NCBI GenBank assembly: GCA_963815195.1
Contig: CAWFGE010000008.1
Span: 288,001 to 352,000 of the forward strand
Direction of reading: 5' to 3'
DNA: 64,000 nucleotides
Source: an uncultured Planctomycetaceae bacterium
Lineage (GTDB): Bacteria > Planctomycetota > Planctomycetia > Planctomycetales > Planctomycetaceae
Shown here: in pieces, positions 4,676 through 64,000 of the stretch
Layout of the letters: the number at the start of each line of letters is the position of its first letter
Position numbering within the stretch: the stretch's first letter is position 1
Program-made: the position numbers and the translations under genes
Notes under the pieces: model-generated
Seen by the model: the letters and a program-made list of their open reading frames with translations, nothing else
Database searches by the model: none
What the model was told of the DNA's origin: nothing

Positions 4676-5272
4676 ATGGTCTCGGCGGTTTTACAGCGGC
4701 CCACGCTGATGCTGAACCGGAACTGGCAACCCGTCGGGGTCGCCACCGTTTCGCGTTCGCTGGTCATGGTGTGGAACGGCACCGCGCGTGTGGTCGATCC
4801 CGAAGACTATCAACTCTACACCTGGGCCGATTGGGCGGCCCTCAAGCCGTCGGACAACGAACCGGTGATCCAGACGGTCCGCTCATCGCTCCGGGTTCCC
4901 GAAGTCATCGCGCTCACGCGCTACGACCGCGTGCCCAATAATACCGTCACCTTCAGCCGGCGGAACATCTTCAAACGCGACCGCTTCACCTGCCAATACT
5001 GCGGCGTGCAACCGGGCAAGGAAGAACTGACGATCGACCACGTCGTCCCGCGTTCCCGCGGCGGCGTGTCGAGTTGGGAAAACTGCGTGCTCGCCTGCGT
5101 CGACTGCAACAGCCGCAAGGCCGACTTCTTGCCCGGCGAAGCCCGCATGCCGCTCTTGAGCCTCCCCGAACGCCCCAAATGGCGGCCGGTGTATGCGACC
5201 CGCGGCCAGCGCTTCCGCAGTTGGTCCAAATTCCTCAGCCAGGCTTACTGGGACGTGGAACTGCAGGAATAA
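4676..5272 (+). CDS. HNH endonuclease (McrA-like)
   Basis: FKRDRFTCQYCG, LTIDHVVPRSRGG, WENCVLACVDCNSRK; strong RBS GGAGGAG. Confidence 0.92.
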   Translation: MVSAVLQRPTLMLNRNWQPVGVATVSRSLVMVWNGTARVVDPEDYQLYTWADWAALKPSDNEPVIQTVRSSLRVPEVIALTRYDRVPNNTVTFSRRNIFKRDRFTCQYCGVQPGKEELTIDHVVPRSRGGVSSWENCVLACVDCNSRKADFLPGEARMPLLSLPERPKWRPVYATRGQRFRSWSKFLSQAYWDVELQE

Positions 5273-61480: not shown

Positions 61481-61592
61481 GACCTGAGCCTTTTTGTTGT
61501 TCGTCGAACCAGAAGGTCGTGCAGCCCTTCAAGATTCTAATCAATTTTCTGCGGGCGAGCTAACCCCTGAAGTGCCGCCGGGCGGCGCGCGA

Positions 61593-61702
61593 TGTCCGCC
61601 GGGAATCGAATCGGGCACCGCCCGAAGGATGGTCCTACGAGCTTCACGAAGCCTGCGGCTCGGTGCCCGAGCCAGGGCGTTCTGCCGTTTGCCGACCGAG
61701 CC
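61593..61702 (-). pseudogene. Disrupted/chimeric tRNA (5' half probably Leu-type) with two mini-element inserts
   Basis: 5' half GGCTCGG-TC-GGCAAACGGCAGAACG-CCCTGG-CTC, then two opposed GGGCACCG hairpins, then TTCGATTCCCGG; the 3' end does not pair with the 5' end. Confidence 0.6.
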
Positions 61703-61716
61703 GATTGTGTTTTCAA

Positions 61717-61790
61717 TACCCAGAGCAGGAATCGAACCTGCAAACACTCGGGTTTAAGCCGAGTCGCTCTGCCAGTTGGCGTATCTGGGC
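61717..61790 (-). tRNA. tRNA-Leu(TAA), short variable loop
   Basis: Anticodon arm CTCGG-CTTAAAC-CCGAG; variable loop TGTTT; T-arm GCAGG-TTCGATT-CCTGC. Confidence 0.85.
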
Positions 61791-61802
61791 CTATTCTTTC
61801 AG

Positions 61803-61874
61803 TAGTCCCGGACGGAATCGAACCATCGTTTCCTGGACGTCAACCAAGCGTCGTCACCATTGGACCACGGGACT
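61803..61874 (-). tRNA. tRNA-Val(GAC)
   Basis: Acceptor AGTCCCG/CGGGACT; CTTGG-TTGACGT-CCAGG. Confidence 0.85.
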
Positions 61875-61882
61875 GAATTAAG

Positions 61883-61980
61883 TGGACCCACCCGGAATTG
61901 CACCAGGGCACCGATGGGCCGCAGGCGGGATTGATCCTCCGGCCTGCGACGCCGGCATCTTCCTGTTGGACGATGAGCCC
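61883..61980 (-). tRNA. tRNA-Ala(CGC) with mini-element insert in the variable loop
   Basis: Acceptor GGGCTCA/TGGGTCC with G3:U70; CCGGC-GTCGCAG-GCCGG; T-loop TGCAATT; 98 nt long. Confidence 0.75.
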
Positions 61981-62008
61981 CTTTGGCAAGCGAAGGTTTG
62001 CTCGCAAG

Positions 62009-62079
62009 CACGCCCCCAAGGACTTGAACCCTGACCAACTGGGTTGGAGCCAGTCATGCTGCGATGACACCAGAGGCGT
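62009..62079 (-). tRNA. tRNA-Trp(CCA)
   Basis: ACTGG-CTCCAAC-CCAGT; discriminator G; D-loop lacks GG. Confidence 0.8.
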
Positions 62080-62090
62080 GTGTTGTTGAG

Positions 62091-62175
62091 CGGAAGCCGT
62101 GAGACTCGAACTCACAAGCGGTTTACGCCGCCACCTGTTTTCAAGACAGGCTCCTCATCCGGCCGGATGACTTCC
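62091..62175 (-). tRNA. tRNA-Ser(TGA)
   Basis: CCTGT-CTTGAAA-ACAGG; long variable arm GCGG-CGTAAA-CCGC; discriminator G. Confidence 0.85.
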
Positions 62176-62184
62176 GATTTTTAG

Positions 62185-62209
62185 CTGCGGGAGTTGAATC
62201 GAACCAACG
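62185..62209 (-). pseudogene. 3' fragment of a tRNA (T-arm and acceptor strand only)
   Basis: CGTTGGTTCGATTCAACTCCCGCAG; the 5' part is replaced by unrelated DNA. Confidence 0.6.
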
Positions 62210-62353
62210 GTTTCCTGAGATGGAGGGATGGAGCAATTTGATAGACGAATTGCCGATACATCTTCCGATCGAATTGCCAGACTGGCGAGAAGAAATCAAT
62301 GCAGCCTAGCCTGACGATGAAACGCTTGTTCTTTTCAAACGAGGACAGGAAAC
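62210..62353. mobile_element. Possible IS remnant replacing the 5' part of a tRNA
   Basis: Bounded by GTTTCCTG/CAGGAAAC; contains an ORF tail GWSNLIDELPIHLPIELPDWREEINAA*. Confidence 0.4.
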
Positions 62354-62361
62354 TTGAAAGG

Positions 62362-62436
62362 CTGCGGAGGCAGGAATCGAACCTGCGTCTGGGCGATTAA
62401 CAGTCGCCTTCCCGTACCAACACAGGACCCACCGCA
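62362..62436 (-). tRNA. tRNA-Asn(GTT)
   Basis: GGCGA-CTGTTAA-TCGCC; T-arm GCAGG-TTCGATT-CCTGC; G8 instead of U8; one acceptor mismatch. Confidence 0.82.
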
Positions 62437-62462
62437 GAATTATGAAACCGTCAATGGCGGAG

Positions 62463-62547
62463 TCAGGATGGTCGGGACCAATCCGGACTTCGGCCGATCG
62501 GTGCCCGAACCGGCGGTCGGCGGATGACCAGACTTTCCCATATCCTG
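62463..62547 (-). pseudogene. Pseudo-tRNA (Pro-like) lacking the anticodon arm, with mini-element in the T-loop
   Basis: Acceptor CAGGATA/CATCCTG-A, D-arm GGAAAGTCTGGTCATCCG, then GACC-GCCGG-TTC[insert]CCGAC. Confidence 0.65.
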
Positions 62548-62555
62548 AAATCGAA

Positions 62556-62626
62556 AGCGCCCAGCGGGAGTCGAACCCGCAATTCCGCCATGGCAAGGCG
62601 GTAGGTTTCCGCTACATCATGGGCGC
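62556..62626 (-). tRNA. tRNA-Gly(GCC)
   Basis: Acceptor GCGCCCA/TGGGCGC-T; CCGCC-TTGCCAT-GGCGG. Confidence 0.88.
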
Positions 62627-62638
62627 GGCTTGATTGAG

Positions 62639-62711
62639 TGGGACCGGAGGGGCTCGAACCCTCACCGAACCGGTTAAGAGCCGGTCATGCTGCCGCTAAC
62701 ACCTCGATCCC
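62639..62711 (-). tRNA. tRNA-Lys(CTT)
   Basis: ACCGG-CTCTTAA-CCGGT; T-arm GAGGG-TTCGAGC-CCCTC; A8 instead of U8. Confidence 0.85.
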
Positions 62712-62728
62712 GTGTTGATATTCTTGAT

Positions 62729-62800
62729 TGAGCCTGGATGGAGTCGAACCATCGTCTGGCCCTTATAAGGAGCCGGCTCTGACCGTTGAGCTACAGGCCC
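62729..62800 (-). tRNA. tRNA-Ile(TAT)
   Basis: GGGCCTG-TA-GCTC-AACGGTCA-GAGC; GGCTC-CTTATAA-GGGCC; T-arm GATGG-TTCGACT-CCATC. Confidence 0.88.
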
Positions 62801-62815
62801 TTTTTCGTTTGGCAA

Positions 62816-62887
62816 TGAGGCCGGAGGGATTTGAACCCCCACCGTGCAGGTTAAAAGCCTGCTGTGCTCCCGTTACACCACGACCCC
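62816..62887 (-). tRNA. tRNA-Lys(TTT)
   Basis: GCAGG-CTTTTAA-CCTGC; T-loop TTCAAAT. Confidence 0.88.
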
Positions 62888-62951
62888 GGAATTGATCGTG
62901 GCGTCTGTTTCCATCGCTGCAAAAAAAACATGAGATAGCCTCTCGGAAAAG

Positions 62952-63024
62952 TAGCCCGGGAAGGAATCGAACCTTCATTTCCGCCTTATCAGGGCGGCGT
63001 CCTAAACCATTGAACGACCGGGCT
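62952..63024 (-). tRNA. tRNA-Ile(GAT)
   Basis: Acceptor AGCCCGG/CCGGGCT-A; CCGCC-CTGATAA-GGCGG. Confidence 0.88.
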
Positions 63025-63041
63025 AATTGGTGAATTGTAAG

Positions 63042-63106
63042 TCGGGATGGCCGGACTCGAACCGGCGACTCCGTGCTCCCAAGGCACGTGGGGTGCCGCT
63101 CGCCAC
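63042..63106 (-). pseudogene. tRNA-Pro(TGG), 5' acceptor strand removed by IS insertion
   Basis: CGTGC-CTTGGGA-GCACG and T-arm intact; 3' strand CATCCCG-A has no 5' partner because the IS end begins there. Confidence 0.78.
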
Positions 63107-64000
63107 CCCTTTCAACATGTTAGATTTTTGCTATAAGTCGCTTCTACAGGGATTGTTGTATCAAACCTTATGGAGGCGGCAAGGATGTGGCCCGACGCTG
63201 TGCTTGATCGTTTTGTGGAAGAATGTCCAGCGGCAGTGATGGTTCGAGCAACGCTCGAGAATCTTGTGTCGCCGGATCGACTGGATGAGATTTTCGCCGA
63301 CGCTTCGCAGAGACAATACGAGAAAGAATTGCTGTTTTCGCAAGTGGTGGCCCTGATGATGGGCGTGGCGACGCGGACGCACACGTCGGTCCATGCCGGG
63401 TACTTGGCCGCCAAGGAGCAACTGGCGGTTTCGCCGGCCGCACTTTATGGCAAGTTGAACCGTCTGGAACCCGGCCTTTCGGCGACGATGATCCGGGAAA
63501 CGAGCCAGGACGCGGCTCAAGTCATCGATGCCATGCCGGGAGCATGCCGCGAACTTTTGCCGGGCTATCACGTGCAGTATTTGGACGGGAATCATTTGGC
63601 GGCGACTGAGCATCGGCTGGCGGAATTGCGCGTCACGCGGGAAGGCCCTTTGCCGGGCCAGACCTTGGCGCTTCTGGACGCGCAGCGGGATCTGATTTCG
63701 GAACTGCTCCCGTGTGAAGACGGGCATGCTCAGGAACGTTCGCTTCTGCCGGAGCTTCTGGAATGGATCCGGGCCGAGACGGTGACAATCGCCGACCGGA
63801 ACTTCTGCACGACCAAGTTTCTGTTTGGAATTGTCAAGCAGTCGGCCTACTTTGTCATTCGCCAACACGCTTCGACACTCACCTGGAAACTCGTCGGTCG
63901 CCGGAAACGCATCGGACGCATCGAAACGGGTCTTGTTTTCGAGCAGTCGGCCGAGCTGTCCCAGGGTGAAGAGACGTTGCGAGTCCGGCGGATCACCATC
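63104..64000 (+). mobile_element. IS4-family insertion sequence (left part; runs off the window)
   Basis: Left end ~CACCCCTTTCAAC abuts the broken tRNA-Pro; transposase ORF follows. Confidence 0.8.
63185..64000 (+). CDS. IS4-family DDE transposase (3' incomplete; absent from the ORF track)
   Basis: Manual translation MWPDAVLDRFVEECPAAVMVR...QYEKELLFS...YLDGNHLAATEHRL...CEDGHAQERSLL...IADRNFCT...FVIRQH; open to the window end; RBS GGAGG. Confidence 0.9.
   Translation, partial: MWPDAVLDRFVEECPAAVMVRATLENLVSPDRLDEIFADASQRQYEKELLFSQVVALMMGVATRTHTSVHAGYLAAKEQLAVSPAALYGKLNRLEPGLSATMIRETSQDAAQVIDAMPGACRELLPGYHVQYLDGNHLAATEHRLAELRVTREGPLPGQTLALLDAQRDLISELLPCEDGHAQERSLLPELLEWIRAETVTIADRNFCTTKFLFGIVKQSAYFVIRQHASTLTWKLVGRRKRIGRIETGLVFEQSAELSQGEETLRVRRITI

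Follow-up and report, generated by a model that had tools for sequence, protein, structure and literature searches.

A 22- to 38-nucleotide hairpin element that replaces target bases in tRNA arrays and REP-like repeats of Planctomycetaceae

We describe a family of ultrashort elements, 22 to 38 nt in length, that run from GGGCACC to GGTC, fold into a bulged stem with a C-GNA-G loop, and take the place of four to six bases of their target without duplicating any. The element likely ranks among the smallest mobile DNAs, and it is probably moved in trans by an enzyme that cuts folded single-stranded DNA. The family came to light in a window of 64,000 nt (the whole stretch of DNA that was analyzed) from an uncultured Planctomycetaceae bacterium, in which a preliminary description had taken four related inserts in tRNA genes for a noncoding, ultrashort mobile element; empty alleles at individual sites, the many unrelated hosts, the nesting of copies, and the spread across taxa bear out that view. 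The genome holding the window is referred to as G000, relatives as G001, G002, G003, G041, and G508, and a provirus record as G810.

Sequence and fold of the GGGCACC family

The element is 23 nt long in 192 of 252 contexts, with credible copies ranging from 22 to 38 nt. The fold consists, in order, of GG, a GC bulge, ACC-G, a variable stem of 7 to 14 pairs, and the C-GNA-G loop, followed by the return to TGGT-CC. The triloop fold previously read from four inserts is seen across the family: among 66 distinct sequences selected by their ends and pairing only, a set whose remainder includes some chance coding matches, 46 have the C-GNA-G closure, with all four bases represented in the middle position. 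The middle base is likewise free in a set of 203 copies, whose pattern already demanded the loop; in this set, positions 9 and 17 are Watson-Crick paired in 190 copies (C-G in 93, A-T in 93, and G-C in 4). Across 37 distinct 23-mers, four and three versions of the two inner pairs occur, respectively, 25-mers gain one pair, and the fourth stem pair, which is G.T or A-T, pairs only on the GGGCA strand. The covariation matches the triloop register and not the shifted UNCG loop of the other strand, and stem covariation in this register points to a single-stranded DNA hairpin; GNA triloops are extra stable in DNA. Judged from the sequences, the conserved G.T pair and the GNA loop would work on the GGGCA strand only. 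Against this fold, ViennaRNA DNA folds of the window inserts gave z-scores from −0.8 to +1.2, no better than those of shuffles, with insert 1 preferring another fold. No Rfam family matches the element.

Nesting occurs, with copies found inside the 3' end of other copies. Two further observations concern possible derivatives. Tandem expansions of 17 nt of the 5' part of the element occur in G000 copies of the REP-like repeat REP-A (e.g., at C5:30717 and C13:650522) and are likely the result of slippage between similar sequences in the host flank and the element core. A 14- to 15-nt GNA hairpin is common to the 32-nt variant and one abundant G002 repeat (235 matches; L029, L047, and L081) and may represent a smaller, second element that contributes 9 nt; as an explanation of the 32-mer and of one REP variant, a second element of 14 nt was set aside as suggestive only, the pattern being common as background and an indel screen of the whole genome giving a single peak, at +18 (40 of 209 rows).

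Insertion sites and replaced bases

The four inserts of the preliminary description were all recovered in place (Table 1), with two amendments. Insert 2, read earlier as 23 nt (61668-61646), comprises 20 nt (61668-61649), since its last three bases belong to the anticodon loop of tRNA-Arg(GCG), and the first of the three host genes is a chimera in which a Leu(TAG)-type 5' half is followed by insert 2 and by an Arg(GCG) 3' half that carries insert 1. The Leu and Arg genes lie approximately 1.7 kb apart in the intact C12 array, which suggests that a deletion ending in the element fused them; the 3' end of insert 2 would have been lost in the deletion that joined Leu to Arg(GCG). G001 carries a Pro/Leu chimera whose junction lies at a T-loop insert.

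Table 1. Inserts, host genes, and tRNA array in the window
Feature	Positions	Strand	Remarks
Insert 1, full 23-nt element	61613..61635	+	Antisense to host tRNA-Arg(GCG)
Insert 2, 5' 20 nt of a 25-nt-type element	61649..61668	−	tRNA-Leu anticodon loop
tRNA-Leu(TAG)-type gene, 5' half, host of insert 2	61669..61702	−	
tRNA-Arg(GCG)-type gene, 3' half, host of insert 1	61593..61648	−	
Insert 3, 32-nt long-stem variant	61906..61937	+	Antisense to host
tRNA-Ala(CGC)-type host of insert 3	61883..61980	−	Rfam tRNA match, 29.2 bits
Insert 4, 32-nt variant in T loop	62475..62506	−	Short-read contig bridges copy
Fifth-insert remnant, five bases	62515..62519	+	Edge of deleted anticodon arm
tRNA-Pro pseudogene, host of insert 4 and remnant	62463..62547	−	Anticodon arm lost in G000
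Decaying accessory tRNA array (L-array type)	61593..63119	−	11 ARAGORN genes plus interrupted ones

Alignment with uninterrupted tRNAs reveals empty alleles. Insert 1 replaces GACCA (5 nt, in host sense) immediately 5' of the T arm of tRNA-Arg(GCG), and allele comparison shows that its site is empty in the C12 paralogue of G000 and in the provirus; the site of insert 2 is filled in G001 as well. Insert 3 replaces GATCC of the variable loop/T stem (net gain, 27 nt) in a host that reads as having a CGC anticodon and a G3.T70 pair. Its site is empty in the G000 C12 paralogue, in G003, and in run X2 and holds a diverged copy in G001; the empty allele of the G000 paralogue and the G003 orthologue is GCCGGA-GATCC-CGGTG, with 32 nt exchanged for the central 5. 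Insert 4, common to G000, G001, and G003, replaces the 5 nt after GGTTC in the tRNA-Pro T loop (net gain, 27 nt), and the fifth insert is present as a whole 25-nt copy at the same tRNA-Pro site in the G001 orthologue. Inserts 2, 3, and 4 are thus shared with genus relatives, in diverged form. Inserts 1 and 4 have read support, short-read contigs of run X1 being identical over 61500-61659 and 62324-62807, with insert 4 bridged and insert 1 covered with only 24 nt on one side; X1 is possibly the source sample, so this agreement counts against assembly error, yet it is not independent. RNA run X20 yielded only tRNA pieces of relatives, which say nothing about expression or splicing.

The array extends past an insertion sequence (IS) at the end of the window. 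This IS, with a DDE_Tnp_1-type open reading frame (ORF) (63170 onward), splits tRNA-Pro(TGG) (window positions 63105-64000 and G000:C8 at about 352,580) and has inverted ends of approximately 18 nt and a direct repeat of approximately 8 nt seen on both sides; the array beyond it carries another copy of the element. Between tRNA-Ser and tRNA-Asn lies a non-tRNA stretch of approximately 160 nt (window positions 62190-62350), which starts after a tRNA-like 3' end. G000 has two further array fragments, C5:30370-31947, which is invaded by REP-like repeats, and C12:573209-575422, which is largely intact and has one 24-nt insert in tRNA-Ala.

The replacement seen in the window holds across the family. 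In 59 site clusters with a usable empty allele, added tRNA arrays included, the loss is 5 nt in 38, 4 nt in 13, and 6 nt in 6, and the remaining 2 look spurious. An earlier clustering, in which the empty allele was usable in 27 of 76 clusters, gave 17 losing 5, 4 losing 4, and 3 losing 6, with two outliers at 7 (one of them REP-A mismatched to a tandem derivative) and one at 9. Random windows, used as a null for the replaced length, produced 6 spurious matches in 150, none of them at 5. Among 158 flank pairs, which are not independent, 78 had three or more empty matches, and the modal loss was 5 in 59 of these. The empty forms of the two main repeat hosts read GCAGGG-CGCTA-GCCCC (REP-A) and TACGC-CCCCC-GCTCG (REP-B), and filled copies carry the 23-mer instead of the central five bases. 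The earlier observation of no target duplication stands, none being present in any usable filled/empty pair, but it was incomplete, as each insertion deletes 4 to 6 target bases.

The ends of the element are uncertain by one base. In 25 of the 38 clusters that lose 5 nt, both flanking bases agree with those of the empty allele, so that a 22-nt core replacing 4 is possible. The 13 four-base clusters are better read as a 24-nt form replacing 5, as their front base departs from that of the host in 10 cases and their last base in 12. The 24-nt form has an extra terminal C-G pair: C stands in front of all 48 G-ending contexts, and G is the last base in 11 of the 13 four-base clusters. C directly precedes the site in 33 of 44 clusters, and no other flank position is conserved; the flanks of 23-mers are mostly C...C and not dyad-symmetric C...G, and a flank-pairing test gave a signal equal to that of the control. 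Frame keeping was rejected as a rule, since the net gain is +18 in only 27 of the 59 clusters and gains of +19 to +22 are found in tRNAs; it is a trait of the commonest variant, not of the mechanism. Excision scars, in the form of random 5-mers in empty REP-A and REP-B copies, were likewise discarded, as none were found and the empty copies fall into one to four common types plus point variants.

That the tRNA array might be either tolerant or targeted had been left open, and arrays look targeted, not merely tolerant. Six copies lie inside tRNA genes in the 5.8 kb of array DNA of G000 (four in the window, plus C8:352631 and C12:574462), a density of approximately 1 per kb versus approximately 1 per 100 kb overall (about 100-fold). 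None of the 31 tRNA genes in six ordinary clusters of relatives holds a copy, but several arrays lack one too. All six copies in a 94-kb provirus are located in its array; outside it, a loose pattern gave four loopless matches versus three for the control. Among 67 rows listed in arrays, two of them misclassed and a few false, the element lies just 3' of the T loop in 24 sense and 17 antisense cases, in the loop in 1, and elsewhere in 25; the sense class is inflated because searches targeted that site, while the antisense class was barely selected for. T-arm scans gave 7 strict copies among 136 rows, many of the latter being natural tRNA ends or unrelated matches, and only hairpin-bearing rows were used. 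One tRNA-Thr site holds five different element sequences. On either strand, the element keeps a single orientation with respect to the T loop, and the occurrence of both orientations in tRNA genes argues for insertion at the DNA level.

The family is genome-wide and not confined to tRNA genes: 74 of 87 G000 copies lie in two REP-like repeats (44 in REP-B and 30 in REP-A, with 13 in other contexts). A group II intron domain V holds a copy, an IstB gene has a clean insertion of six residues relative to its G000 paralogue, and an IS ORF has two in-frame copies. Judged by open frames only, copies are also spanned by genes for DDE transposases, intron reverse transcriptase (RT), a serine recombinase, kinases, a polyprenyl synthase, and AcrB. 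In-frame peptides of the kind predicted earlier exist (GPTSGRCP, GHRPQVG, and others), and six REP-B-borne copies are in frame within coding genes; enrichment of filled REP-B copies in coding frames was not significant (6 of 47 versus 7 of 160; P = 0.08). REP-B with the element is in frame twice in a UvrA-like ORF (G000:C12:886898 and 887951) and once in an aldehyde dehydrogenase-like (PutA-type) ORF (C13:352443), both ORFs being named from sequence motifs.

Spread and the search for a mobilizing enzyme

The 8-nt head alone is not enriched, either in the window (10 versus 5.0 expected, a count reached in 2 of 100 shuffles) or genome-wide (813 versus 766 expected). The full motif is enriched: 61 to 64 strict copies occur in G000, 116 in G001, 98 in G002, and none in G003, with a reversed control giving 0 in G000 and in all 101 genomes. 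Two C14 matches were dropped as coding look-alikes without the GNA loop. The strict pattern is present in 32 of 398 family genomes, with 21 to 117 copies in five of them (21 in G508) and 1 to 4 in the rest, and the control again gave 0. A loose pattern (head, 9 free bases, and tail) returned mostly coding background in 401 genomes of the phylum, with more than seven matches in G000 only; as this is background only, the family is patchy. A scan of a genome collection returned at least 75 loci, and among the matches listed, 66 carry the title Planctomycetota, with 5 from Gemmatimonadota, 2 from Acidobacteriota, and 2 from Alphaproteobacteria; all come from metagenome-assembled genomes, so misbinning is possible for single cases. 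An intergenic copy occurs in two viral contigs of one phage, a plasmid search gave four matches attributable to chance, and the 32-mer pattern had no match in metagenomes. The 94-kb provirus (L423, in the bacterial record G810) has a 36-gene tRNA array with an HNH gene and six inserts, adjoining terminase and serine recombinase genes, and a provirus of this type is a possible vehicle for arrays and element alike.

No mobilizing enzyme was identified among the Y1_Tnp, RT, and array HNH families, none of which discriminates between genomes with and without the element. Co-occurrence with HUH/RAYT or RT genes had been put forward as a guide, but these genes do not separate carriers from noncarriers: Y1_Tnp genes occur in 49 of 61 relatives whether the element is present or absent, and RT genes occur in all five genomes tested, including G003, which has no strict copy. 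G000 has nine Y1_Tnp matches, and no copy of the element stands as a cognate end beside a Y1 gene at any of the Y1 loci examined. One of these genes, the REP-B RAYT, is flanked by three empty REP-B copies; it has an 85% orthologue in G001 and only distant matches in G002 and G041, and no orthologue was found in G003 or G508. Its locus (L281; G000:C13:615625-618921), with a RAYT-like gene of 186 amino acids, is a planctomycete REPtron without the GTAG foot, and the G001 orthologue has the same repeats. Five insert-rich arrays contain an HNH nuclease gene, but its family occurs in 67 of 70 genomes, with or without the element. The window itself has an HNH endonuclease gene of the L-array type (4676-5272), 67% identical to the provirus copy and 57 kb from the array; HNH genes are described as sitting in cyanobacterial tRNA L-arrays too (PMC8421152). 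With 9 copies scorable and a GC skew too weak for the purpose, no lagging-strand signal of replication-strand bias was readable.

Mechanism and relation to known elements

We lean, tentatively and with somewhat less than even confidence, toward a mechanism in which the element swaps in as a folded single DNA strand, moved in trans by a RAYT/TnpA-like HUH (Y1) enzyme. The GGGCA strand would fold out while the DNA is single stranded; the enzyme would read the bulged base of the hairpin, cut at the hairpin foot, and cut a second folded strand, such as a tRNA arm or a REP, twice, 3' of C and four to six bases apart. The hairpin would then be exchanged for the short target piece, with replication fixing the change, and copies landing in a REP would be amplified or converted with it, giving rise to high copy numbers. 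An HUH/Y1 enzyme is favored because of the strand-specific bulged hairpin, the C before the cut, and the RAYT-type hosts, as reported for TnpA-REP. The loss of target bases requires two target cuts, which is an added assumption; to our knowledge, no target bases are lost in IS200/IS605 and RAYT strand transfer. E. coli TnpA-REP is described as cutting between C and T, requiring a bulged stem, and being strand specific (PMC8266576), and it counts against an HUH reading that the element has no GTAG foot and that the cuts are not at C-T.

Other routes account for parts of the data. Break repair is rather unlikely in our estimation; here, a nuclease or type II topoisomerase would cut hairpin-forming DNA, leaving a 4-nt stagger, and once the overhangs had been trimmed away, a stable mini-hairpin would be captured, or copied from another element, with no dedicated transposase. 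With both flanking bases assigned to the host, only 4 nt are lost unambiguously (the 25 of 38 clusters noted above), a length equal to the stagger of gyrase; the HNH gene within the five insert-rich arrays fits such a route, as do the filled copies in all REP-B head/loop subtypes with more than three copies, which gene conversion would give. T4 SegB reportedly favors tRNA genes (PMC8421152). On the other side stand the C...C flanks of most 23-mers where dyad-symmetric C...G would be expected, the high precision of the element ends, the fixed orientation relative to the T loop on each strand, and the presence of the HNH family irrespective of the element. We consider it improbable that the hairpin is transcribed and that an RT writes the copy at a staggered nick, with deletion of target sites as occurs for some non-LTR elements. 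The targets do include structured RNA genes (tRNAs and the group II intron domain V) and an intron RT ORF, RT genes were present in all the genomes tested, and, as RNA, the opposite strand would be able to adopt a UNCG-type loop; however, the covariation backs the DNA triloop register and not the shifted UNCG register, tails and 5' truncations are lacking, and G003 has RT genes and no strict copy.

A crossover by a tyrosine recombinase, as in integrons, on a folded single strand, with a short nonhomologous target overlap being overwritten, seems to us quite improbable. The fixed short exchange and the extrahelical bases of our single-stranded hairpin recall IntI/attC and coupling sequences, and the extra C-G pair of the 24-nt form, with its invariant preceding C (48 of 48) and the G at the end of most four-base clusters, resembles a carried-over flank. 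Yet target bases are kept at neither end, a DNA of this size could not close into a double-stranded circle, and no att-like core is common to the targets. Passive spread, through a few ancient insertions followed only by inheritance, REP amplification, and array transfer, would suit the concentration of G000 copies in two REP families and the sharing of inserts 2, 3, and 4, in diverged form, with genus relatives, but it is very improbable in view of the 76 site clusters, the five different sequences at one tRNA-Thr site, the near-identical copies in unrelated hosts and phyla, and the nesting of the element in its own 3' end.

The closest known elements are the small dispersed repeats (SDRs) of cyanobacteria, compared here by description only; the mode is the same, and the element is a variant of a known but unexplained kind. 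SDRs reportedly have a conserved fold, insert into other repeats, nest, and form frame-keeping copies in genes, and no enzyme is known to move them; SDR1 to SDR8 are those of the Nostocaceae (Elhai 2008, Genome Res 18:1484). Our element resembles SDRs in being a dispersed repeat of about 20 to 27 nt whose insertion is seen in filled/empty pairs and in conserving structure while sequence varies. SDRs are described as dispersed elements of about 20 nt, thought to be mobile and precise in insertion (PMC4390886, PMC5861425, and PMC2884548), and SDR5 inserts between bases 3 and 4 of HIP1 (PMC4390886), whereas our element has no HIP1 target and no octamer shared by its sites. None of the at least 75 loci is cyanobacterial among the matches listed. 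No description of the GGGCACC family was found in the literature covered, outside which lay subscription papers, Elhai 2008 included.

The element fails the defining tests of a REP, an IS200/IS605 derivative, a MITE, and a tRNA intron. Like REPs and REPINs, as far as these are outlined in PMC8266576, PMC3116915, PMC3733652, and PMC6006769, it is a short, bulged, strand-specific, nonautonomous hairpin with C at the cut; unlike them, it has no GTAG/CGTC foot, its flanks vary freely save for the C at −1, it does not occur in doublets or flank a RAYT (host REP-B does flank one), and it inserts into REPs and tRNA genes with the removal of target bases. It shares the single-stranded hairpin substrate and the lack of target duplication with the ends of IS200/IS605 and their nonautonomous derivatives, but it has no tetra- or pentanucleotide target, loses 4 to 6 target bases, and is about ten times smaller; in a limited search, no autonomous parent with shared ends was seen as a long form among Y1 loci or T-arm matches. 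A MITE or other DDE-mobilized element would have terminal inverted repeats and leave target-site duplications, and no usable pair shows a duplication; in contrast to a tRNA intron, the element takes the place of host bases, occurs in both orientations, and sits in hosts that are decayed or chimeric. Double-hairpin elements are likewise tiny, palindromic mobile DNA. Mitochondrial GC clusters, as described in PMC4478555, are similar in being tiny, GC-rich, palindromic mobile DNA with constrained stems, variable loops, and both merging and nesting.

How repeats of approximately 20 bases move has been an open question since cyanobacterial SDRs were described, and the GGGCACC family provides a set of bench-testable rules: invariant ends, a freely variable stem of 7 to 14 pairs, a strand-specific GNA loop, a C before the cut, the loss of 4 to 6 bases, and a recurrent site in the tRNA T arm. 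As a tool, an enzyme able to exchange a few bases for a short hairpin cargo, with no duplication, would be attractive. A bolder idea, which we regard as possible but somewhat unlikely, is that one enzyme swaps a patch of 4 to 6 bases of any folded single-stranded target for a 22-base hairpin by new chemistry, with sites chosen by shape (the 3' side of a stem-loop) and not by sequence, and that SDR-like microelements are substrates of one widespread family of such enzymes; if this were true, the GGGCACC family would be the easiest of them to work with: its donor and its hot spot in the tRNA T arm are defined, and it would help to break up tRNA arrays acquired by horizontal transfer. In the genomes that carry it, the element accounts for six-residue insertions in proteins and for part of the decay of accessory tRNA arrays, including pseudogenes, Leu/Arg and Pro/Leu chimeras, and missed tRNA calls.
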